64,000 nt of DNA from Dehalococcoidia bacterium (GTDB lineage Bacteria > Chloroflexota > Dehalococcoidia > Lucifugimonadales > UBA3495), in the NCBI GenBank assembly GCA_965243185.1, contig OZ251531.1, positions 2,534,532 to 2,598,531 on the forward strand. The letters run 5' to 3'. Shown piece by piece: positions 1-61,398 of the stretch. The notes beneath the pieces were generated by a model that saw only the letters and a program-made list of their open reading frames with translations, did not search any database and was not told the origin of the DNA. A program made the position numbers and the translations under genes. Every line of letters starts with the position of its first letter. The first letter of the stretch is position 1.

Positions 1-295
1 GATGGCGCAGTAGATGGTTTTGCCGCGGTTGGCGGCGAGGGATTCGAGGATCATCGAGACGCGGGCGTCATCGGCATCGGCAACGGCGGGGGATTCTTGC
101 CAGTCGGAGCAGTCCCAAGGGATGGAACGGGGGGCGGCTTGGGCGACGTCTACATAGAACAAGTGTTCTGGGGGGGGGTAGTACGGAATTGGAGCGGGTG
201 AGGGCGGGTTCGGCGGGGCCGCTGGAGTGGGTGAAGGCGGCGGCGATGACCAGGAGTCCGACCAGGGCCAAGGCGGATACGAGGGCGCGAAACAT
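1..295 (-). CDS. Secreted Cys-containing protein family, paralog 1 (5' part, continues off the left edge). The signal-peptide ORF and the mature-domain frame are offset by +1 at a C9 run.
   Basis: An ATG at 295 follows an AAGGA RBS and encodes MFRALVSALALVGLLVIAAAF (signal peptide). After the C9 run (plus-strand G9, 170-178), the +1 frame reads FYVDVAQAAPRSIPWDCSDWQESPAVADADDARVSMILESLAANRGKTIYCAI. This is homologous to the proteins at 30108-30911 and 60382-61398. Confidence 0.55.
156..169. promoter_or_regulatory. Perfect AGAAC-N4-GTTCT palindrome abutting the homopolymer. It could be a Cheo/SOS-box-like site or a 5-bp mRNA hairpin.
   Basis: The sequence agaacaagtgttct is read directly. The same motif class sits at 30101-30114 and, with one mismatch, upstream of lexA at 56621-56634. 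Confidence 0.3.
170..178. repeat. G9 (C9 on the coding strand) homopolymer inside paralog 1
   Basis: Counted directly: g at 170 plus gggggggg at 171-178. Confidence 0.95.
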
Positions 296-428: not shown

Positions 429-458
429 GCGGGGGAACTTTTGTAAAAGTTCCCCCGC
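429..458. repeat. Family-C palindromic repeat (gcgggggaactttt-gt-aaaagttcccccgc)
   Basis: Arms of 14 bp. Near-identical copies lie at about 31123-31152 and 60123-60152, each next to a caaaagttttgaggg motif. Confidence 0.85.
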
Positions 459-708: not shown

Positions 709-1365
709 TTAATTGTCAGCACTGGGGAAATCCAGGAGCTGCAAAGCATCCTCGGCCCGCCAGCCGTAATGCCGCAAAGCAGCGGCTATGTTGCTATGGC
801 CGGCTAAACGCAGCAAGCCGCTGACCAGGTTGCGTAAAGCCGCCAACACCGGCGGCGCCGCTCCGCTCCGGACCCGGCAGCGATCCTCGCCAAAAGTTAC
901 ATCCCGCACCCAATGCAGCCGGTTCGCAATGCCCCAATGCCCCCGCCACAATTCCAGCAGCCGCGCCGGGGCCGCCTGCTCCGGGGATAAACTGGTGATG
1001 GCGTAAGCCGTCTCCACCGTTGTTGTTCCCCGTTCCGTGCGGGTACGCTCCAGGCAGCAGACCTGCTGCAACCCGGGCCAATCCAAGTAATCCGTCAAGG
1101 CGGTGGAAGTCCGCAGCCACCGTTGCTCTTTACGCCCGCCGTGGCGGCTGGCTTGCCACGCCGCCGGGAAGGTTGCCCCAAAGGGCGGCTCCTTAAACAG
1201 CAGCTCCACCGCGTCCAAGGTAGTCGGCTGATTGCCCTTCAGCATCCAGAGATAATCCCCGCCTTGGGCTACGATGTCCCGGCTCAAGTCCCGTTGGGCA
1301 TACAGGGCGTCCCCGGTAACCACTTTCCCCGGCAAGTCCAATTCGGCCAGCAATTCCCGTCCCAC
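709..1365 (-). pseudogene. ISAs1-family transposase, C-terminal (DDE) portion
   Basis: LPGKVVTGDALYAQRDLSRDIVAQGGDYLWMLKGNQPTL and HWGIANRLHWVRDVTFGEDRCR are typical ISAs1 DDE-domain strings. This frame is +1 relative to the N-terminal ORF. Confidence 0.8.
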
Positions 1366-1372
1366 CCCCAGT

Positions 1373-1873
1373 TCACTGGATTTGGGCTGCCCCCTGACCC
1401 CCCTTTTGCCCGACCACCAAGCCGGCTGGCACGGCGTAGGCGGCTACCAACCGCACCCCGGGCAGTTCATCCCCGTGCAAGCCCCGCAGCGCCTTGCCGT
1501 CCACCGCCAGCGCCTTGCCGTCCACCGCCAGCACCTTGCCGTCCACCGCCAGCGCCGCCGCCCAGGCCGGCAAGGCCGCCAAGGCCCACTGGCTTAACGC
1601 CGCCTCAAAAGCCGCCACATCCAACCGCCGGAAAACATGATGCAAGGTCGCCACGCAAGGGGTCTGCTCCCGGGTAAAGCCCAAGGCTTGGGCCAACTCC
1701 GGGTGCTCCCGCCCCCACTGGGCCATAGCATACAGGCTGCGACCATCGCCCAGCATGGCGCACACCGCCAAAGCCAGAATGGCCGCCAAGGGATGCCGCC
1801 GCCCCCGGGCTTTACGGGGATCCGGAACTTGGGCCAAGACTTCCCGCAAGGACAACGCCAACTTTTCCGACAT
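1373..1873 (-). pseudogene. ISAs1-family transposase, N-terminal portion. It ends at a frameshift in a G6 run and contains a 3x 21-bp in-frame repeat.
   Basis: An ATG at 1873 follows a GGGAGG RBS. VPDPRKARGRRHPLAAILALAVCAMLGDGRSLYAMAQWG is the ISAs1 N-terminal domain. The expected continuation VRGQPKSSELGVGRELL is in the +1 frame after the run at 1398-1403. Confidence 0.8.
1490..1552. repeat. Tandem 21-bp repeat x3 inside the ISAs1 transposase gene
   Basis: cgccttgccgtccaccgccag occurs twice, then caccttgccgtccaccgccag. Together they encode AVDGK(V/A)L three times. Confidence 0.95.
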
Positions 1874-2050
1874 GGCGGCTACCTCCCTTTTTCCTAATGT
1901 CTCCCTTATTATCCCCCGTATCGGAAACAATTAAAAGACCCTGGGCGGCGGAGGGGGCGGGGTTGACTTGCCTGGGTTCTGCCTTTATGGTACATTGTCT
2001 GCAAAATTCAATCGTTGGACGCAAAGGCGTTGGCGGCAAAGGAGAGTTTG

Positions 2051-25447: not shown

Positions 25448-26956
25448 ATGTGGACTAAAGAGGATTTGCAACGGCTGGTGCAGCGGCAGATTGGCGATTA
25501 CCGGCTGGTTATCGTTTCCAACCGCCAGCCGTATATCCATACCCTGGTGGAGGGGCAGCCGCAATCCATTATGCCGGCCGGGGGGCTGACCAGCGCGCTG
25601 GATCCGCTGATGCAGGCGTGCGGCGGGACCTGGATTGCCTATGGGGGCGGCAGCGGCGATCGCTATGTAGTGGATTGGGATGACCGGGTGATGGTGCCGC
25701 CGGAGGATCCGGCTTACGCCCTGCGGCTGGTCTGGCTGACGGAGCAGGAGGAGCAGGGGTATTATTACGGCTTTTCCAATGAAGCCCTGTGGCCGCTGTG
25801 CCATAACGCCTATACGGAGCCGATTTTTGACTGGCGGGATTGGCAGACTTATCAGGCGGTCAACCGCAAGTTCGCCGATATGGTACTGGATGAAATCGGG
25901 GGGCGGCCGGCCATTGTGCTGACCCAGGATTATCATTTGGCATTGCTGCCGCAATACATCCGCAACGCGGCCCCGGACATCATTACCGGGCAGTTCTGGC
26001 ATATTCCCTGGCCGCATCCGGAGATTTTCCGCATTTGTCCCTGGCAGGGGGAGTTGGTAGCGGGACTGTTGGGGAATAACCTGCTGGGGTTTCATATCGG
26101 CGATCATTGCAGCAACTTTATGGAGACGGCGGCGCGGACGCTGCCGCTGGAAGTGGACGCGGAGTATAACCGCATTGAGTATCAAGGGGAGACGACGCTG
26201 GTGCGGCCCTTTCCGATCAGCATTGACTTTGACGACCTGTGCCGGTTTGCGGAGAGCGGGGAAGTGGCGGCGGAGATGGAGCGGCTGCAAGGGGAGTGGG
26301 GGCTGGAGGGCAAGCTGATCGGGTTGGGGATTGACCGGGTGGACTATACCAAGGGTATCCCGCATCGGTTCCGGGCGATTGGGCGGTTTCTGGAGAAGTA
26401 CCCGGAGTATCTGGGCAAGGTGGTTTTTGTGCAGGCGGGGGTGTTGAGTCGCAGCGATATTGACGCCTATCAGCAGCTGGCGGCGCAGATTGACGGGCTG
26501 CTGGATGACATCAACAGCCGGTTTGCCCGGGACGGCTGGCAGCCGATTATTTATATGCCGGACGATTTGCCGGCGGTGACTTTGATGGCATTGCGCCGTT
26601 TGGCCCGGTTCTGCATTGTCAGTTCGCTGCACGACGGGATGAACCTGGTAGCCAAGGAGTTTGTGGCCAGCCGCTTTGACAATGACGGGGTGCTAATCCT
26701 CAGTCCTTTTACCGGGGCGGCTCTGGAGTTGACGCAGTCGCTGATTGTCAATCCTTACGCTACGGAGGATCTGGCGGAGGCGATCCGGGAGGCGGTGACG
26801 ATGCCGGCGGCGGAACGGGCTTATCGGATGGCGCAGATGCGGGCGACGGTGCGAGAGAATAACATTTACAAGTGGGCGGCGCGGCTGCTGGTGGAGTTAA
26901 TCCAGTGCGCCCGGCGTTCCACCTCGGGACTGGCGCAATTGGCCGGGGTTCGTTAG
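25448..26956 (+). CDS. otsA: Trehalose-6-phosphate synthase (GT20)
   Basis: LVIVSNRQPY, GGLTSAL, FSNEALWPLCH, QDYHLALLP, IGLGIDRVDYTKGI and LHDGMNLVAKEF are present. The ATG at 25448 lies 10 nt after GGAGAGG. Confidence 0.9.
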   Translation: MWTKEDLQRLVQRQIGDYRLVIVSNRQPYIHTLVEGQPQSIMPAGGLTSALDPLMQACGGTWIAYGGGSGDRYVVDWDDRVMVPPEDPAYALRLVWLTEQEEQGYYYGFSNEALWPLCHNAYTEPIFDWRDWQTYQAVNRKFADMVLDEIGGRPAIVLTQDYHLALLPQYIRNAAPDIITGQFWHIPWPHPEIFRICPWQGELVAGLLGNNLLGFHIGDHCSNFMETAARTLPLEVDAEYNRIEYQGETTLVRPFPISIDFDDLCRFAESGEVAAEMERLQGEWGLEGKLIGLGIDRVDYTKGIPHRFRAIGRFLEKYPEYLGKVVFVQAGVLSRSDIDAYQQLAAQIDGLLDDINSRFARDGWQPIIYMPDDLPAVTLMALRRLARFCIVSSLHDGMNLVAKEFVASRFDNDGVLILSPFTGAALELTQSLIVNPYATEDLAEAIREAVTMPAAERAYRMAQMRATVRENNIYKWAARLLVELIQCARRSTSGLAQLAGVR

Positions 26957-27020
26957 CCGGGCCGAGCTGTCCGCATAGCGCCAACCGTCCGCCAAGGGCA
27001 AGGCGGTCACATATAGAAAC

Positions 27021-27090
27021 CGTCATTCCCGTGAAAACGGGAATCCAGAGTCCCCGGCCTTTCTGGATTCCCACTTTCGTGGGAATGACG
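27021..27090. repeat. Complete family-B palindromic element (MITE-like) in the otsA-otsB spacer
   Basis: The sequence is cgtcattcccgtgaaaacgggaatccagagtccccggcctttctggattcccactttcgtgggaatgacg. Its two halves equal the sequences flanking both IS30 copies. Confidence 0.8.
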
Positions 27091-27140
27091 ATAAGTAGGC
27101 CGCAAGGTATATGCGATGGCCTTGCGGTCAAGGGCTGTTT

Positions 27141-27920
27141 ATGCCGCATCTCTTGAATGTCTGGCCGCAAGTACGCCGGCAAGTTAATCGAGCCGGGCAT
27201 ATTTTGTTGCTGCTGGATTATGACGGGACTTTAGCGCCCCTTGCGCCGCGGCCGGAGCTGGCGGTTTTGCCGGAGGATACGCGGCGGGCGGTGAGTCGGC
27301 TGCAACGGCGGGAACGGTATACGGTGGGTCTGGTCAGCGGGCGGGGGCTGGCGGATTTGAGGGGGATGGTGGCTTTGCCGGGGCTGATTTACGCCGGCAA
27401 TCACGGGTTGGAGATACAAGGGCCGGGGCTGGAGTTTTTGCATCCGGCGGCGGACGAATGGCGGGGGGAATTGGCGGCATTGGTCAACACCTTGGCGAAT
27501 CGGTTGGGCGGGTATGAGGGGGTTCTGGTCGAGGGCAAGGGGCTGACTTTGAGCGTTCACTATCGGTTGACGCCGGGGGAACAGCGGGCGGCGGTGGCGG
27601 CGGATTTTAGGGCGGCGGTAGGGGAATTGCAGGCGGCGGGGCGGGCGCGGATTACCCGGGGCAAGGAAGTGCTGGAGGTGCGGCCGGCGGTGGATTGGGA
27701 TAAGGGGAAGGCCATTGCGCGGATTGCGGCGGAGTTTCCGGCGGGGACGCTGCCGGTGTTTTTCGGGGATGATTTGACGGATGAGGATGGGTTTGCGGCG
27801 GTGGCGGAATTGGGGGGAATATCGGTAATAGTGGGGCCGGCGCGGCAACCGACGCGGGCGGCGTATCGGGTGGATTCGCCCCGGGAAGTGGCGGAGACGC
27901 TGACTTTGCTGGCGGATTGA
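27141..27920 (+). CDS. otsB: Trehalose-6-phosphate phosphatase
   Basis: LLLLDYDGTLAP (HAD motif I), SGRGL, GNHG, KGKA and FFGDDLTDEDGF are present. An alternative start lies at 27111. Confidence 0.85.
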   Translation: MPHLLNVWPQVRRQVNRAGHILLLLDYDGTLAPLAPRPELAVLPEDTRRAVSRLQRRERYTVGLVSGRGLADLRGMVALPGLIYAGNHGLEIQGPGLEFLHPAADEWRGELAALVNTLANRLGGYEGVLVEGKGLTLSVHYRLTPGEQRAAVAADFRAAVGELQAAGRARITRGKEVLEVRPAVDWDKGKAIARIAAEFPAGTLPVFFGDDLTDEDGFAAVAELGGISVIVGPARQPTRAAYRVDSPREVAETLTLLAD

Positions 27921-27922
27921 GG

Positions 27923-28372
27923 CTAACCTTCGGCTTCGACCTGGAGGAGTTTGTCGAGGCGGCGTTGGAAACGGGGTTCGGGTTGGAAGGCAGCGTTAAG
28001 GAAGGCGGTGAGGATTTCTTTGGCGAGGTCGGGGCCGATGATGCGGGCGCCGAGGCAGAGGATGTTCATCGCGTCGTGTTCGACGCCCTGGTGGGCGCTG
28101 TAGGTATCGTGGCAGAGGCCGGCGCGGATGCCGGCTATTTTGTTGGCGGTGATGCTGGCGCCGATGCCGCTGCCACAGATAATGATGCCGCGTTCGGCGT
28201 GGCCGGCGGCGATGGCGCGGGCGACGGCGACGGCGAAGTCGGGGTAGTCGTCCTCCGGGTCGAGGGTGTGGGCGCCGAGGTCATGGATGTGGTGGCCGGC
28301 GGATGCGAGCCAAGGTTTGAGGGTTTCTTTGAGGGGAAGGCCGGCGTGGTCGGCGCCGAGGGCGATTTGCAT
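27923..28372 (-). CDS. rpiB: Ribose-5-phosphate isomerase B
   Basis: MQIALGADHAGLPLKE...GIIICGSGIGASITANKIAGIRAGLCHD...HDAMNILCLGARIIG is present. Confidence 0.9.
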   Translation of the reverse strand: MQIALGADHAGLPLKETLKPWLASAGHHIHDLGAHTLDPEDDYPDFAVAVARAIAAGHAERGIIICGSGIGASITANKIAGIRAGLCHDTYSAHQGVEHDAMNILCLGARIIGPDLAKEILTAFLNAAFQPEPRFQRRLDKLLQVEAEG

Positions 28373-28655
28373 AGCGGCAGGCTCCAAGAGGGATGGTTGG
28401 GTGGTTAAGGTTCGGGTGAGTTTAAGGATAGCGGCAAGGGGGCGGGTGGGGCAAGGGGTGGGGGAGTGGGAATTGGGAATTAGGATGTGTGGACCTTTAC
28501 TAAATTCCGGTAGGAAACCGGGCAGGTTTGTGGCGATTCAGCGGCGGCGACCGGACTGAACCGGTACGCCTAATGCTCCGCCTCAGTCGCCGGTATTTTG
28601 CTAACGGCTCGGCGTGGTATAATGGGGGCGTTGCAATGGGTGCAAGCCTGAGGAG

Positions 28656-29615: not shown

Positions 29616-29786
29616 TGGCCGGCCGGGCTGCGGCAATCAGTAATCGAGTTGATGACCGGGCTAAACCGGCCACAATAACCGGCCGGCCATCCCCCCAGCC
29701 CACCCCTGTTCACTCCCAACTTCTCCCATATATGTCACCCCGCCATTCCGGTTACTACCCCTGTCATTCCCCCCCTTTATATCCTC

Positions 29787-29825
29787 ATGTCATTCCGAGC
29801 CGACAGCCGAGGAATCTAAAATGCC
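29787..29825. repeat. Family-A repeat, half copy
   Basis: The sequence is atgtcattccgagccgacagccgaggaatctaaaatgcc. Confidence 0.75.
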
Positions 29826-29968
29826 CGCCTGACCCCATCACTACCGCAGCATCCCCCACCGTCCCCCTATTCCTAATTCCCGATTCCCCCCTCATCCCCG
29901 GTTGACAACCCTAGCCTCATCCTGTTACCCTAACCCCACCTCGAACTTCCCCCACGGAGGCCGCCTAT

Positions 29969-30911
29969 ATGTTCCCCTTCCCCCTCAAACTAATCCTCTC
30001 CCTGACCAACCTGTCCCTCCTCCTAGTCACCGCCGCCTTCACCCAAAGCAGCCCCACCGCCCCGGCCCTCACCTGCTCCAATTCTGTACTACCCCCCCCC
30101 AGAACGCTTGTTCTATGTAGGCGCGGCTGCGGCCGCCCCCCGCTCCATCCCCTGGAACTGTGACGACTGGCAAGCCTCCCCCGCCGTTGCCGACGCCGAT
30201 GACGCCCGCGTCTCCGCCATCCTCGAATCCCTCGCCGCCAACCGCGGCAAAACCATCTACTGCGCCATCGACCAATCCGACACCTTCACCAAAGCCGAAA
30301 CCTGGGCCGCCGGCCGCCACCGCAACGAACGGGATGACACCGTCTATTTCGGCCAAAGCGGCAACTTCCGCGGCTTTCTGGCGGCCCAAGAAGGCTACCT
30401 GACCGATGGCGAATCCGGCGTTACCGGCGTCTCCCGCGACCTCATCTTTGAATTCCCCCGAGAGGAACGGAAACGGCGGCGGTACCGGACTTTTAAGGCG
30501 TGCCCGGCTTATGATGCCGCCCAACAGCACCCGCCTTATTCCCCTTGTGTATTGCAGACCGGCTTGCACAGTACGGCGGGCGGGATCGGCAATCGCGCTT
30601 CCGCGCTAACCGCCGCTAACACCCAGTGGCTCACCTTCGCCGGGCGACCCGCGGCGGTCAACACCGCTGAAAAATATCAGGCTTGGCTGGAAGTATCGGC
30701 CCGCCAAGCGGACGCTAACGCCCAGGCCACGGCCGCCTGCCGCGTCCGCGGAGCGCGTTTGACCGGCCGCGCCCGGATCCGGGTTCAACCCGGTACGACC
30801 CGGGCAGCCGATACCTATTACTACAGCGCGAACTTGGCCGGCGGCGGCAATTATCAATTCCGGGTGGGCGCCCAAATCTACTTCGACGCTACCTGCAAAA
30901 AACGCCGGTAG
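29969..30911 (+). CDS. Secreted Cys-containing protein family, paralog 2. The signal-peptide ORF (29969-30163) and the mature-domain ORF (+1 frame, to 30911) are joined only by a +1 shift in a C9 run.
   Basis: GGAGG lies 8 nt before the ATG at 29969. MFPFPLKLILSLTNLSLLLVTAAF is a signal peptide. The +1 frame after 30092-30100 reads ERLFYVGAAAAAPRSIPWNCDDWQASPAVADADDARVSAILESLAANRGKTIYCAIDQSD..., about 80 percent identical to 60382-61398 over roughly 125 aa. Confidence 0.6.
30092..30100. repeat. C9 homopolymer at the signal-peptide/mature-domain junction
   Basis: Counted directly in gta cta ccc ccc ccc aga acg. Confidence 0.95.
30101..30114. promoter_or_regulatory. Perfect AGAAC-N4-GTTCT palindrome directly after the C9 run
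   Basis: agaacgcttgttct is read directly. Confidence 0.3.
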
Positions 30912-31020: not shown

Positions 31021-31152
31021 CATGCCATTCCGCGGCGACAGCCGAGGAATCTAAAATGCCGCCCCCGCAACTAACTTCAACACAACCAGCCCTCCCCAAA
31101 ACTCCAAAAGTTTTGAGGGTGTGCGGGGGAACTTTTACAAAAGTTCCCCCGC
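31021..31152. repeat. Composite repeat unit (family-A half, caaaagttttgaggg motif, family-C palindrome)
   Basis: By eye about 85-90 percent identical to 60025-60152. It also matches the reverse complement of roughly 429-535. Confidence 0.8.
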
Positions 31153-31194: not shown

Positions 31195-32284
31195 GTCATT
31201 CCCACGAAAGTGGGAATGTACATTCACAGTTCAAGCGCAACACATCCCGGGCCAAAACCTCCGCCGGGGTCTGATACCCCAAGCACTGCCGGGGCGTATT
31301 ATTGTACGCCCGCACCCGCTCAATTAACAACTCCTCCGGCAAAGTCGCCAAATCCGTCCGTCGCGGCAGCGTCCGCCGCAGCCGCCCGATGGCATTCTCC
31401 ACTCCGCCCTTCTGCCACGGCGAATGGGTGTCGCAGAAATAGGTGGCAATCCCCTGCTCGTGCAGCCGATAGTGGCGGGCGAACTCGGCCCCATTGTCAA
31501 AGGTCACCGTCTGCCGCCACTCGTCCGGCAGCACATTCAGCACCTGGCCGATGACCGTGGCGATGGGTTCCGCCAGCTTGCCTTGCGGCAGTCGCAAGGC
31601 CACCAGCAACCGGGAATAGCGCTCCTCCAATACCAGGGCGGCTTGCCCGTAGGGGCTGAACAGCATCAAGTCCGCTTCCCAATGCCCGGGCGTCTGCCGG
31701 GTCGCGGCCGCCGCCGGCCGGGCGTCCAGTCCCTGCCGGTAGGGAATGCGACTGCCAGCCTGCCCCCGCTTGCTCCGACCCCGGCGGGTTTTGCCCTGCG
31801 GCAAGTAATGCCGCCAGTCATACGCCTTGCCCCGCCGGATTTGGGCATCAATGAACCGGTAGATGGTCTCGTGGGACAAAATCGTCCGACCCATCTCCCG
31901 TTTCAAGCGACCGCATACCTGCTGCGGCGACCACCCGGCTTTGAGCCGGGCCAACACCCACTCCCGCAAAGCGGCGTCCCGTTCCAACTTGGAGCCTTGC
32001 CACCGCCGAGCCCGGGCTTGCTGGTCAGCATAAGCCGGCTGATCGCCCCGCTGTCGGGAGCTGCCGTTGCGTTTCACCTCCCGAGTAATGGTTGATGGCG
32101 CGCGATCCAAAGCTGCCGCGATTTGGCGGTAGGAGCAGCCCGCGGCTTGTAGTCGGGCCAGTTCACACCGCTCTGCCAAGGTAAGCTGTTGATACCGAGT
32201 TCCCATTGCAGCGCCTCCGCCAGAAAGTGTTGCACTTCCTTTGTGAATTTAGCGAATCCAGAAAATCCGGGGACTGGGAATGAC
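31195..32284 (-). mobile_element. IS30-family element, copy 2 (intact transposase), inverted relative to copy 1
   Basis: Flanked by gtcattcccacgaaagtgggaat (31195-31217) and gaatccagaaaatccggggactgggaatgac (about 32254-32284), which are family-B halves. The subterminal sequence cattcacagttcaag is shared with copy 1. Confidence 0.75.
31196..32206 (-). CDS. IS30-family transposase
   Basis: A 336-aa protein with an N-terminal HTH (LTLAERCELARLQAAGCSYRQIAAAL). HWEADLM...DNGAEF...CDTHSPWQKGGVENAIGRLRR is the DDE (rve) core typical of IS30. Confidence 0.9.
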   Translation of the reverse strand: MGTRYQQLTLAERCELARLQAAGCSYRQIAAALDRAPSTITREVKRNGSSRQRGDQPAYADQQARARRWQGSKLERDAALREWVLARLKAGWSPQQVCGRLKREMGRTILSHETIYRFIDAQIRRGKAYDWRHYLPQGKTRRGRSKRGQAGSRIPYRQGLDARPAAAATRQTPGHWEADLMLFSPYGQAALVLEERYSRLLVALRLPQGKLAEPIATVIGQVLNVLPDEWRQTVTFDNGAEFARHYRLHEQGIATYFCDTHSPWQKGGVENAIGRLRRTLPRRTDLATLPEELLIERVRAYNNTPRQCLGYQTPAEVLARDVLRLNCECTFPLSWE

Positions 32285-59884: not shown

Positions 59885-60152
59885 TATGTCATTCCGACCG
59901 AAGGGAGGAATCTCAAATGCCCGCCCTTGACTCCTTCCCAGATTCTTAAATTCCCCCCTCTTAACGTCATTCCCACGAAAGTGAGAATCCAGAACCCCCT
60001 ATGTCATTCCCTTGCACTGTTACCCATGTCATTCCGAGGCGCAGCCGAGGAATCTAGAACGCCGCCCCCGCAACCCCCTACAACACAACCAGCCATTCCC
60101 CAAACTCAAAAGTTTTGAGGGGGTGCGGGGGAACTTTTACAAAAGTTCCCCC
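59885..60152. repeat. Repeat cluster: family A, family B, family-A half, caaaagttttgaggg motif and family-C palindrome
   Basis: The units are read directly. The order mirrors the cluster upstream of paralog 1 (365-660, opposite strand). Confidence 0.85.
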
Positions 60153-60228
60153 GCCGTCTCTTTTTGAATCCCTCTCCCGGGAACACCCATCCCGGGCCCA
60201 AAAAAATTTTTAATTTTTAGTCCCCCAA

Positions 60229-60237
60229 CCCCCCCCC
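60229..60237. repeat. C9 homopolymer 145 bp upstream of paralog 3
   Basis: Counted directly in tcccccaa-ccccccccc-ggt. Confidence 0.95.
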
Positions 60238-60268: not shown

Positions 60269-60329
60269 AAAAGTGTAGAAAAGGGCGGGCTTCCTGTCAA
60301 GTAGGAAGCCCGCCCTTTTCTACACTTTT
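60269..60329. other. Perfect 27-bp-stem hairpin (aaaagtgtagaaaagggcgggcttcct / aggaagcccgcccttttctacactttt) with a 7-nt loop
   Basis: Both arms were read and complement-checked. It lies 53 bp upstream of the paralog 3 start. Confidence 0.9.
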
Positions 60330-60381: not shown

Positions 60382-61398
60382 ATGAACCGCTACCGATTCC
60401 CTATTGCCATCCTAATCCTGTCCGTCATGACCTTCGGACTGCTCGTTACCGCCAGTCCTACCCCGGACGCGCAAGCCGCCCCCCGCACCATCCCTTGGGA
60501 TTGCTCTGACTGGCAAGAGTCCCCGGCGGTCGCCGACGCCGCCGACGCCCGCGTCTCGATGATCCTCGAATCCCTCGCCGCCAACCGCGGCAAGTCCATC
60601 TATTGCGCCATCGACCAGTCCGACACCTGGACTAAAACCGAAACCTGGGAAGCCGGTCGGTACCGCAACGAACGGGACGACACCGTCTATTTCGGCGAAC
60701 AAGGCAACTTCCGGGGCTTTCTGGCGGCCCAAGAGGGTTATCTAACCGACGGCGAATCCGGCGTTACCGGCGTCTCCCGCGACCTTATTTTTGAGTTTCC
60801 CCGAGAGGAACGCCGCGGCAAGAAAACCGTCCGCTTCCGGGTCCGCAGCGACTCCGCCGAAACCGGCACCTGCATCACGCCGCACCCGCAAACCCTCTCG
60901 GAGAGCACGCCGGCGCCCCCCGGCACCCTGATTTGCTCTAACCTGCACGGTTCCTGGACCGGCTCCTGGATCCAAAGCTTGGCTGATCCTATGCAGCATC
61001 GGGCCCGGAACGCGTATGTCGGCCGCCCTCAAGGGGACACCGACTGGAGGTTCGACTGGCGAACCCGCGTCCGGACGTGGACTGTGCAAAATCCGGCGGT
61101 CGCCCAGGGTAGCAGCCTTAGCGAGGATGAGTGGATCGCCAAGGCGGAAGCCGCGGCCATTTCCGCTTGCCGGGCCCGGGGCGGGAAGTATGTCGCCGGC
61201 AGCGCCGATTTCGGCCCCGGCCATAACAACGAACGCGGCTCGGGCGCAAGTTATATGGGCCCCAACCATGGCTGGTTTTACGACTACCGCCGACAGAGCG
61301 AATCGGGGTTCGGGAACAATGCCCACGCTTATCAGGCGAAAGCCCGGGAAAGCCGCACCTGGAGCGGTGTCTGCACCAAACGCGTCCGCCGCCGCTAA
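60382..61398 (+). CDS. Secreted Cys-containing protein family, paralog 3 (uninterrupted)
   Basis: GGAGG lies 8 nt upstream. The signal peptide is MNRYRFPIAILILSVMTFGLLVTASP. APRTIPWDCSDWQESPAVADAADARVSMILESLAANRGKSIYCAIDQSD...GVTGVSRDLIFEFPREER is conserved with the paralogs. The C-terminal half is diverged. Confidence 0.75.
   Translation: MNRYRFPIAILILSVMTFGLLVTASPTPDAQAAPRTIPWDCSDWQESPAVADAADARVSMILESLAANRGKSIYCAIDQSDTWTKTETWEAGRYRNERDDTVYFGEQGNFRGFLAAQEGYLTDGESGVTGVSRDLIFEFPREERRGKKTVRFRVRSDSAETGTCITPHPQTLSESTPAPPGTLICSNLHGSWTGSWIQSLADPMQHRARNAYVGRPQGDTDWRFDWRTRVRTWTVQNPAVAQGSSLSEDEWIAKAEAAAISACRARGGKYVAGSADFGPGHNNERGSGASYMGPNHGWFYDYRRQSESGFGNNAHAYQAKARESRTWSGVCTKRVRRR

Follow-up and report, generated by a model that had tools for sequence, protein, structure and literature searches.

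A 64,000-nucleotide (nt) stretch of the genome of a Dehalococcoidia bacterium (contig OZ251531.1, positions 2,534,532 to 2,598,531; hereafter, the window) carries a gene that raises a simple question: why does an open reading frame (ORF) for a signal peptide run into a tract of nine cytosines (C9) and stop soon after it, while a conserved domain continues from the same tract in another frame? In this gene, copy 2 of a family with three copies in the window, direct reading places a Shine-Dalgarno (SD) motif, GGAGG (29956-29960, plus strand), 8 nt 5' of an ATG at 29969. The ORF that begins there (29969-30163, plus strand; 64 amino acids as assembled) encodes MFPFPLKLILSLTNLSLLLVTAAF...SNSVLPPP, including an N-terminal hydrophobic segment that scores as signal-like. 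Its zero-frame codons read ...TCC AAT TCT GTA CTA CCC CCC CCC AGA ACG, after which translation would continue out of frame to a stop at 30163. The mature-domain frame (30099-30911, plus strand) comprises a conserved N-domain, the polybasic linker FEFPREERKRRR, a variable C-domain, and the C-terminus ATCKKRR; only the +1 frame is open through its conserved domain, ...PPPERLFYVGAAAAAPRSIPWNCDDWQ..., starting within the C9 run (30092-30100, plus strand) and ending at the stop codon at 30909-30911. Copy 1, on the minus strand, is built in the same way: a signal-peptide ORF (68-295, ATG at 295-293) encodes MFRALVSALALVGLLVIAAAF...SNSVLPPP and then goes out of frame, the C9 tract (170-178) leaves it in an OFF register identical to that of copy 2, and the mature-domain frame (1-171) extends past the window start and matches protein P0034. 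The 20-mer GTACTACCCCCCCCCAGAAC is identical in both copies (0.01 expected by chance), and their aligned signal-peptide modules are clearly different. An earlier note on this DNA had described this architecture and its conservation between two copies with diverged flanks, and both observations hold on direct reading and alignment.

The C9 runs are probably slipped-strand, phase-variable contingency loci, and both window copies would at present be in the OFF phase. The tract would be a hypermutable homopolymer that separates the mature domain of a secreted protein from its signal-peptide module, and slipped-strand mispairing at replication would add or remove a cytosine, which would bring the mature domain into or out of the signal-peptide frame. 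The window arrangement, C9 followed by A, is the in-frame length plus one nt and would thus be OFF in both copies; the loss of one C or the gain of two would give ...SNSVLPPPERLFYVGAAAAAPRSIPW... and turn protein secretion ON. The earlier note had listed this mechanism as its first alternative, with C8 or C11 as the lengths that restore the frame; the lengths are correct for 30092-30100, and the mechanism fits all of the data. The family combines an uninterrupted coding tract near the 5' end, length polymorphism of that tract, coexisting ON and OFF alleles, and an ORF under selection, as expected of contingency loci. With approximately 40 paralogs, many of which have a coding tract, each cell would display a stochastic subset; switching would occur at high frequency inside a population, and the selective agent would be a host or phage.

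The number of C9 runs in the window is not above chance (three observed, 8.2 expected from dinucleotide shuffles). The signal lies in their location, as all three are at the 5' ends of the three family copies, and two occupy the same codon position. Genomic loci of the family were drawn from two Dehalococcoidia metagenome-assembled genomes (MAGs), each with approximately 40 copies, and in 263 kb of related loci, 25 of the 33 G/C runs of at least 8 nt were located at this junction. The poly-C tract ranged from C7 to C13 with conserved flanks, and a sister subfamily carried G10 to G13 at the equivalent junction, including an in-frame G12 allele (L107). Where the tract directly preceded GAAC, C9 was ON (L017/L080, L082, and L084), and C8 (L022), C10 (L001, L002, L036, L086, and L106), and C11 (L008) were OFF. 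The variants C9+GCA (L083), C13+AA (L081), and C8+T (L105) were also ON, and C9+T (L038) and C10+TAC (L010) were OFF. Where an A preceded GAAC, as in the window, all alleles were OFF: C7 (L108), C10 (L026), and C9, which was found in both window copies (W1 and W2), L004, L007, L013, L030, L039, and L085. The statement of the earlier note that run length and +1 offset are the same therefore stands for the two window copies and six other loci, and fails for the family overall. Over all assemblies, six poly-C loci were ON and 19 OFF at the DNA level, a proportion that is biased because several ON short-read loci were picked deliberately. A scan of Joint Genome Institute (JGI) metagenomes for the junction pattern returned no matches.

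In-frame proteins that span the junction are P0014, P0020, P0024, P0025, P0026, P0029, P0130, P0144, and P0124. P0124 is a tract-bearing paralog encoded on the window's own 3.37-Mb contig. The type of signal-peptide module found in copy 1 is in frame in the ON alleles L082 (P0026) and L080 (P0024), and that of copy 2 is joined to the mature domain without a frame break in the ON alleles P0014 and P0020. The junction of P0026, ...SELPPPERLFYVG..., is exactly that predicted for the window genes when they are shortened by one nt; the junction peptides predicted for the in-frame product include LFYVGAAAAAPR and SNSVLPPPER. L108, the closest independent relative of the window gene (approximately 92% identical and in the same 90% cluster as the window protein), has C7+AGAAC, and together with the C9+AGAAC of the window, it brackets the in-frame C8+A. 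The window flank at 26000-28481 is 95% identical to the CBDESR MAG, in which the family gene is inverted and not a simple orthologue, and the comparison of orthologues was therefore made on L105 and L106 instead. At this syntenic locus, one sample was ON (L105, C8T) and the other OFF (L106, C10). In ON alleles, the three prolines were still encoded by CCC-CCC-CCC although CCG is the preferred proline codon (49.5% vs. 33%), which is consistent with retention of the repeat itself.

The earlier note had favored programmed +1 frameshifting. In this mechanism, ribosomes would stall on CCC-CCC-CCC while the rare AGA occupies the A site, and the peptidyl-tRNA-Pro would move from CCC onto CCA, so that the fusion protein is made from C9 DNA. 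A slippery P-site CCC is indeed followed by a slow A-site codon, since AGA accounts for 15 of 1151 arginine codons (1.3%) in 44 long window ORFs and is as rare as had been supposed, and re-pairing on CCA is possible at CCC-A from what is established on CCC-N slippage. C9+AGA is common to eight loci, and three more with C10+GAAC (CCC-CGA) and one with C9+TGA likewise need a +1 shift; in the long-read MAGs and the window, this register was found at 12 of the 16 poly-C loci, and the OFF copies are under purifying selection. On the other hand, the opposite shift is needed at L008, L022, and L026 (12 OFF registers of one kind and three of the other in this set) and also at L108, and in-frame C9 alleles exist (L017, L082, and L084) that efficient frameshifting would damage. 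The poly-G loci behave alike with a different codon and tRNA, and L009, whose ORF is intact and whose register is the same, has an interrupted tract without the slippery codon. No SD-like element was found upstream of the window sites, and predicted folding of the downstream sequence did not exceed that of shuffled controls (z = 0.03 and 0.46). The known cases prfB (CUU-UGA-C with an upstream SD) and Ty1 (CUU-AGG-C) share with the window the pairing of a slippery codon in the P site with a slowly decoded one in the A site, here CCC-AGA; in contrast to them, site and offset are not conserved in the family, an SD-like stimulator is lacking, and in-frame and opposite-register alleles coexist. A fixed recoding signal does not explain these mixed registers and alleles, whereas a mutable tract does, and programmed recoding at CCC-AGA is thus very unlikely. 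Low-level slippage of the ribosome or RNA polymerase may nevertheless leak some product.

The OFF copies do not behave like decaying genes. A full-length mature ORF with the canonical C-terminus ATCxK..RR was kept in approximately 20 of 28 tract-bearing OFF loci, with further lesions in L036, L065, L010, L062, and L064. The ratio of nonsynonymous to synonymous substitution rates (Ka/Ks) between OFF copies was 0.21-0.29 for the complete mature domain and 0.07-0.30 when restricted to the N-domain, and that of the mature frame of window copy 2 against other OFF copies was 0.09-0.30. As judged from these ratios and the intact frames, the OFF copies are not decaying, and their ORFs are under purifying selection. 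An excess of OFF alleles with intact, constrained ORFs resembles homopolymer frameshifts that are maintained by selection, and Wernegreen et al. reportedly described such frameshifts in 2010 for poly-A tracts of Blochmannia and Buchnera, where transcriptional slippage rescues them. By analogy, RNA polymerase would stutter on the tract and give a mixture of C8, C9, and C10 mRNA, the OFF genes would be expressed constitutively at a low level, and the frameshift would be kept by selection. As in the Blochmannia and Buchnera case, a homopolymer of at least 9 nt carries a frameshift within otherwise intact, constrained genes: apart from L108 (C7), L022 (C8), and L105 (C8T), the tracts are at least 9 nt long, about as long as the RNA-DNA hybrid, and RNA slippage in either direction could rescue both OFF registers, in poly-C and poly-G alike. 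Productive transcriptional slippage is, however, documented on A/T runs (PMC3711429). G/C hybrids are more stable. L009, L028, and L108 (with its C7) would be poorly rescued, and the length polymorphism and ON alleles observed in DNA mean that a DNA switch exists regardless of RNA slippage. These examples from insect endosymbionts also differ in that they concern A/T tracts in single-copy housekeeping genes of reduced genomes without ON/OFF polymorphism, whereas the present tracts are G/C, belong to a variable multigene family, and are polymorphic in DNA. Transcriptional slippage as the main explanation is therefore unlikely.

Several observations weigh against phase variation as the whole account. 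Across the window and the long-read MAGs, 27 loci carried a tract; only 1 of these was ON and 20 were one nt too long, a skew that exceeds the neutral expectation of one in three. None of the 10 sampled loci in the lineage with A after the tract was ON, and eight of them had C9. L009, L028, and L106 were OFF and beyond rescue by tract slippage alone, because of an interrupted tract (L009 and L028) or an extra 4-nt deletion (L106), and their ORFs were still intact; L028 also has a stop in the mature frame just before HLFYV. The tract lengths are those of consensus assemblies, and heterogeneity within a population is a prediction of the switch model. Phase variation has been documented mainly in host-adapted pathogens, and the sponge habitat of the present organism is a presumption. 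Campylobacter poly-G tracts have been described as settling near 9-10 nt; a length equilibrium of this kind, together with selection against expression, could explain the skew, to which consensus bias or rescue at the RNA level may contribute.

The same skew bears on whether the true length is C8 or C11, with the homopolymer over-called by a long-read consensus and the window copies being ordinary in-frame genes. Homopolymer indels are the main error of long reads, and 20 of the 27 loci being too long by exactly one nt is what such an error would give. The contig names of the relatives (such as ctg28309_9x_l) look like those of a low-coverage metaMDBG long-read assembly, and high-fidelity (HiFi) reads with metaMDBG were used for cobiont MAGs in the Sanger sponge genome notes. 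The ISAs1-type transposase in the window is likewise split near a G6 run. However, C9+AGAACGC recurs in eight loci of three assemblies, including six of another MAG and the short-read-style scaffold L085, and short-read-style scaffolds hold the OFF states C10 (L086 and L106) and C7+A (L108) beside ON states. The scaffold label of L085, PANK22-1, would point to the Caribbean sponge metagenomes of Pankey and Lesser (BioProject PRJNA555077), which were sequenced by Illumina HiSeq with paired-end 150 (PE150) reads (PMC9723761); the sponge habitat and the sequencing technologies of the assemblies are presumed in this manner. Furthermore, the window's genome itself gives the in-frame tract-bearing paralog P0124, and other long window ORFs with C6-C7 runs are intact. 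The over-call that the earlier note had kept as its second alternative is therefore improbable as a one-off, and we regard an artefact as a very improbable explanation.

The intact ORFs of L009, L028, and L106 indicate that tract slippage is not all that maintains them and that a further process, for instance recombination with other copies, has to be at work. One possibility is a silent cassette reservoir, in which the OFF copies serve mainly as donors and mature segments are recombined behind functional 5' modules, as in silent pilS or vls. The same mature protein (at least 90% identical) was found behind a tract-bearing OFF module (P0038 and P0126) and behind an ordinary signal peptide (P0125), and signal-peptide and junction types were mixed combinatorially. 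In addition, 40-nt direct repeats found by a repeat search (left copy, 29786-29825; right copy, 31021-31060; both on the plus strand) flank the whole cassette of copy 2. These repeats are 93% identical and 1235 nt apart, they bracket the cassette with its promoter included, and their 24-mer core occurs exactly twice in the window (0 expected), which suggests that the cassette of copy 2 is a duplicated or mobile unit. In some OFF alleles, the signal-peptide ORF has extra lesions while the mature ORF is intact, which hints at cassette-like recombination among paralogs (L105 vs. L106). Silent cassettes normally lack a promoter, a ribosome-binding site, and a complete signal-peptide ORF, whereas the OFF copies have their own conserved promoter-like element and both of the others, and ON alleles of the same modules exist. 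For copy 2, the candidate promoter, proposed from conservation, consists of TTGACA (29902-29907, plus strand), an 18-nt spacer, and TACCCT (29926-29931); in an alignment of six diverged 5' modules, TTGACA was invariant and TTACCCT nearly so, although a consensus scan did not call this promoter, the -10 of which matches at only three of six positions. Cassette donation would complement tract switching rather than exclude it, and a mainly silent reservoir is unlikely. Recombination is probably a second layer of variation above phase variation because the unrescuable loci stay intact, mature proteins swap 5' modules, and the 40-nt repeats flank the window cassette.

What is switched appears to be an exported protein. 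The conceptual fusion protein has 743 homologues in a large protein collection, and the family shares a signal peptide, a conserved N-domain of approximately 110 amino acids (Ka/Ks of about 0.1), the polybasic linker, a variable C-domain, and the C-terminus ATCxK..RR(R). A profile search of the fusion protein against Pfam, NCBIfam, and PDB gave no match; AlphaFold2 modeled the C-domain with confidence (predicted local distance difference test, pLDDT, 73-92) but not the N-domain, and Foldseek found nothing in PDB below E = 0.79. The signal peptide and the conserved cysteines suggest export, and the protein would be secreted or exposed at the surface. The srp RiPP precursors (of peptides made on the ribosome and modified afterwards) reported in sponge Chloroflexota were considered and rejected, since a signal-peptide protein of 250-350 amino acids has no relation to such small azol(in)e peptides. 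The internal TTG at 30108, the start chosen by gene callers, was also judged unlikely because no SD precedes it; its product would be without the signal peptide common to all in-frame paralogs, and the conserved cysteines suggest export.

The 5' modules of the family fall into three groups. In most paralogs, the signal peptide is of an ordinary kind and continues in frame (...TASPTPDAQA-APRSIPW). A second group contains an additional segment, ...R-S-x-S-x-L-PPP-E-[HR]-L-F-Y-V..., whose PPP comes from the poly-C tract, and a third, found mainly in the more distant of the MAGs, carries poly-G at the equivalent junction. Roughly one third to one half of the paralogs have a coding tract of either kind.

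A palindrome, (A/C/T)GAAC-N4-GTTCT, abuts the tract in every poly-C paralog. In copy 2, it reads AGAAC-GCTT-GTTCT (30101-30114, plus strand) and is translated as E-R-L-F in the mature frame; in copy 1, direct reading gives AGAAC-ACTT-GTTCT (156-169, minus strand). GAACN4GTTC occurs in the window only at the two junctions, and all 15 of its occurrences in the 263 kb of family loci are at the junction, where it is the only recurrent predicted hairpin. Within the arms, the codons are invariably GAA, xTG, and TTC, even though leucine is preferentially encoded by CTC. The motif resembles the LexA box of Gram-positive bacteria and Dehalococcoides; it lies 130 nt inside the ORF, and one arm is mutated in L108. 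The pattern TA-C(8-15)-GAACRCYTGTTCTA also matched four unrelated genomes, namely, two Eubacterium MAGs (L094 and L096), a Caldilineaceae genome (L103), and a Chloroflexota MAG (L093), against roughly 0.2 expected by a back-of-envelope estimate. A poly-C tract beside a palindrome that is similar to a LexA box may be a recurring arrangement.

The third family member of the window (60382-61398, plus strand) has an ordinary in-frame signal peptide (MNRYRFPIAILILSVMTFGLLVTASPTPDAQA), and the third C9 run (60229-60237, plus strand) lies upstream of this non-tract paralog, as a second class of variable tract. In this class, seven runs of at least 8 nt ranged from C8 to C21, and most other paralogs had about C6. 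Of the eight long G/C runs outside the junction, seven belong to paralogs without a coding tract and are found 166-298 nt upstream of where the mature domain starts. Such upstream tracts were found in the window (60229-60237), L006, L031, L032, L073, L075, L076, and L079, and in most of these loci the tract is part of a conserved module that consists of AAAAAATTTTTAATT, Cn, and GGTAGCCAACCCC, in this order.

A perfect palindrome with 27-bp arms (60269-60329, plus strand) stands between this tract and the gene and is unique in the window; the TTGACA in its loop (60296-60302) is on the minus strand and faces away from the gene. Perfect palindromes occupy the same place in 25 non-tract paralogs (the window copy, L003, L005, L006, L011, L012, L014-L016, L018-L021, L023-L025, L027, L031-L035, L037, L040, and L079), approximately 170-185 nt upstream of the mature-domain start, and have arms of 9-26 bp (27 bp with a loop counted as 7 nt). 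Paralogs differ in the sequence of the arms, pairing is always kept, and the 7-10-nt loop holds TTGACA. Nine loci have TTGACA on the gene strand, where it makes up TTGACA-17 nt-TAYCCT/TACACT/TATTAT; the other 16, the window copy among them, have the loop in exact reverse complement. Inverted loop pairs occur in at least three arm backgrounds, between near-identical paralogs. Upstream runs of at least 9 nt were all in loci with the loop pointing away from the gene, a difference that is not significant (5 of 16 vs. 0 of 9).

From these alignments, promoter direction looks as if it is set by inversion of the hairpin loop, an inversion that is seen between paralogs and not at one locus. Invertible promoters are known from the capsule invertons of Bacteroides (PMC10403206). 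As in those and in fimS of Escherichia coli, inverted repeats flank a segment with a promoter element whose orientation differs between copies. Unlike them, the flipped segment is a 7-10-nt loop of a perfect palindrome that carries the -35 hexamer only, the -10 lies in the symmetrical arms, and no recombinase gene was identified for the element. A literature search found no description of a loop-flip promoter switch; if real, such a flip would be invisible to current inverton finders as we understand them.

The family genes of the window lie in surroundings rich in insertion sequences, with the ISAs1-type transposase beside copy 1 and, immediately downstream of copy 2, a 336-amino-acid ORF (31196-32206, minus strand) that looks transposase-like by sequence. 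The ISAs1-type gene (709-1930, minus strand) consists of two ORFs (1373-1930 and 709-1365) and has a tandem VDGKxLA duplication. Its split (1366-1403) could be a real pseudogene or an assembly indel and is an ambiguous gauge of assembly quality. A small perfect palindrome, gcgggggaacttt-TACA/TGTA-aaagttcccccgc, adjoins each family gene of the window (429-458, 31123-31152, and 60125-60154).

Among known systems, the proposed switching mechanism most resembles that of Neisseria opa and of the poly-G/C contingency genes of Campylobacter and Helicobacter. The opa genes encode an outer-membrane protein family of 11-12 members with CTCTT repeats in the signal-peptide coding region. They share with the present family an exported multigene family, a repeat in the leader coding part, copies that switch independently and are mostly OFF, and recombination mosaics, and they differ in that the repeat here is a homopolymer and not a pentamer, the family is larger, with approximately 40 copies, its proteins bear no relation to those of opa, and it belongs to an uncultured Dehalococcoidia rather than to a proteobacterial pathogen. 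The tracts of Campylobacter jejuni, Helicobacter pylori, Haemophilus, and Neisseria are likewise intragenic G/C runs of approximately 8-13 nt near the 5' end, with ON or OFF set by length modulo 3 and a mode of approximately 9-10, and one such homopolymeric-tract gene is Cj1295 of C. jejuni (PMC3068675). In those bacteria, the tracts are scattered over unrelated surface-modification genes, whereas here they occupy one homologous site in one expanded family, as poly-C or poly-G by subfamily.

Contingency loci based on homopolymers are textbook material for a few host-adapted pathogens and, to our knowledge, are essentially undescribed in environmental or symbiotic phyla known from metagenomes alone. 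A literature search found no report of repeat-mediated phase variation in Dehalococcoidia, Chloroflexi, or sponge symbionts; the organism of the window, an uncultured Dehalococcoidia, probably lives in sponges. A joint reading, possible and offered tentatively, is that every copy of the family has its own stochastic switch, of at least three kinds: a coding poly-C tract, a coding poly-G tract, and an upstream poly-C tract combined with a -35 element in a palindrome loop. The loop would be flipped by hairpin-mediated inversion and turn the promoter toward or away from the gene, as a previously undescribed, recombinase-independent "mini-inverton", and the C9-AGA alleles would perhaps be expressed at a low level through slippage of RNA polymerase or the ribosome, a dimmer on the switch. 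On this joint reading, no contingency-gene system would have been described before this family in Chloroflexota or, provided that the habitat holds, in sponge symbionts.

If phase variation is true, homopolymers that resemble long-read errors may be real regulatory elements and should not be "polished" into frame. Annotation would also be affected, as gene callers cut the family to cytoplasmic-looking "MFYV..." proteins or call pseudogenes and so hide a major secreted or surface family; many of the retrieved homologues were such "MFYV..." truncations. For the organism itself, approximately 40 switchable secreted genes with hypervariable C-termini in a 3.4-Mb genome would imply strong fluctuating selection in an uncultured lineage, with host recognition, phagocytosis, or phage as candidate pressures.

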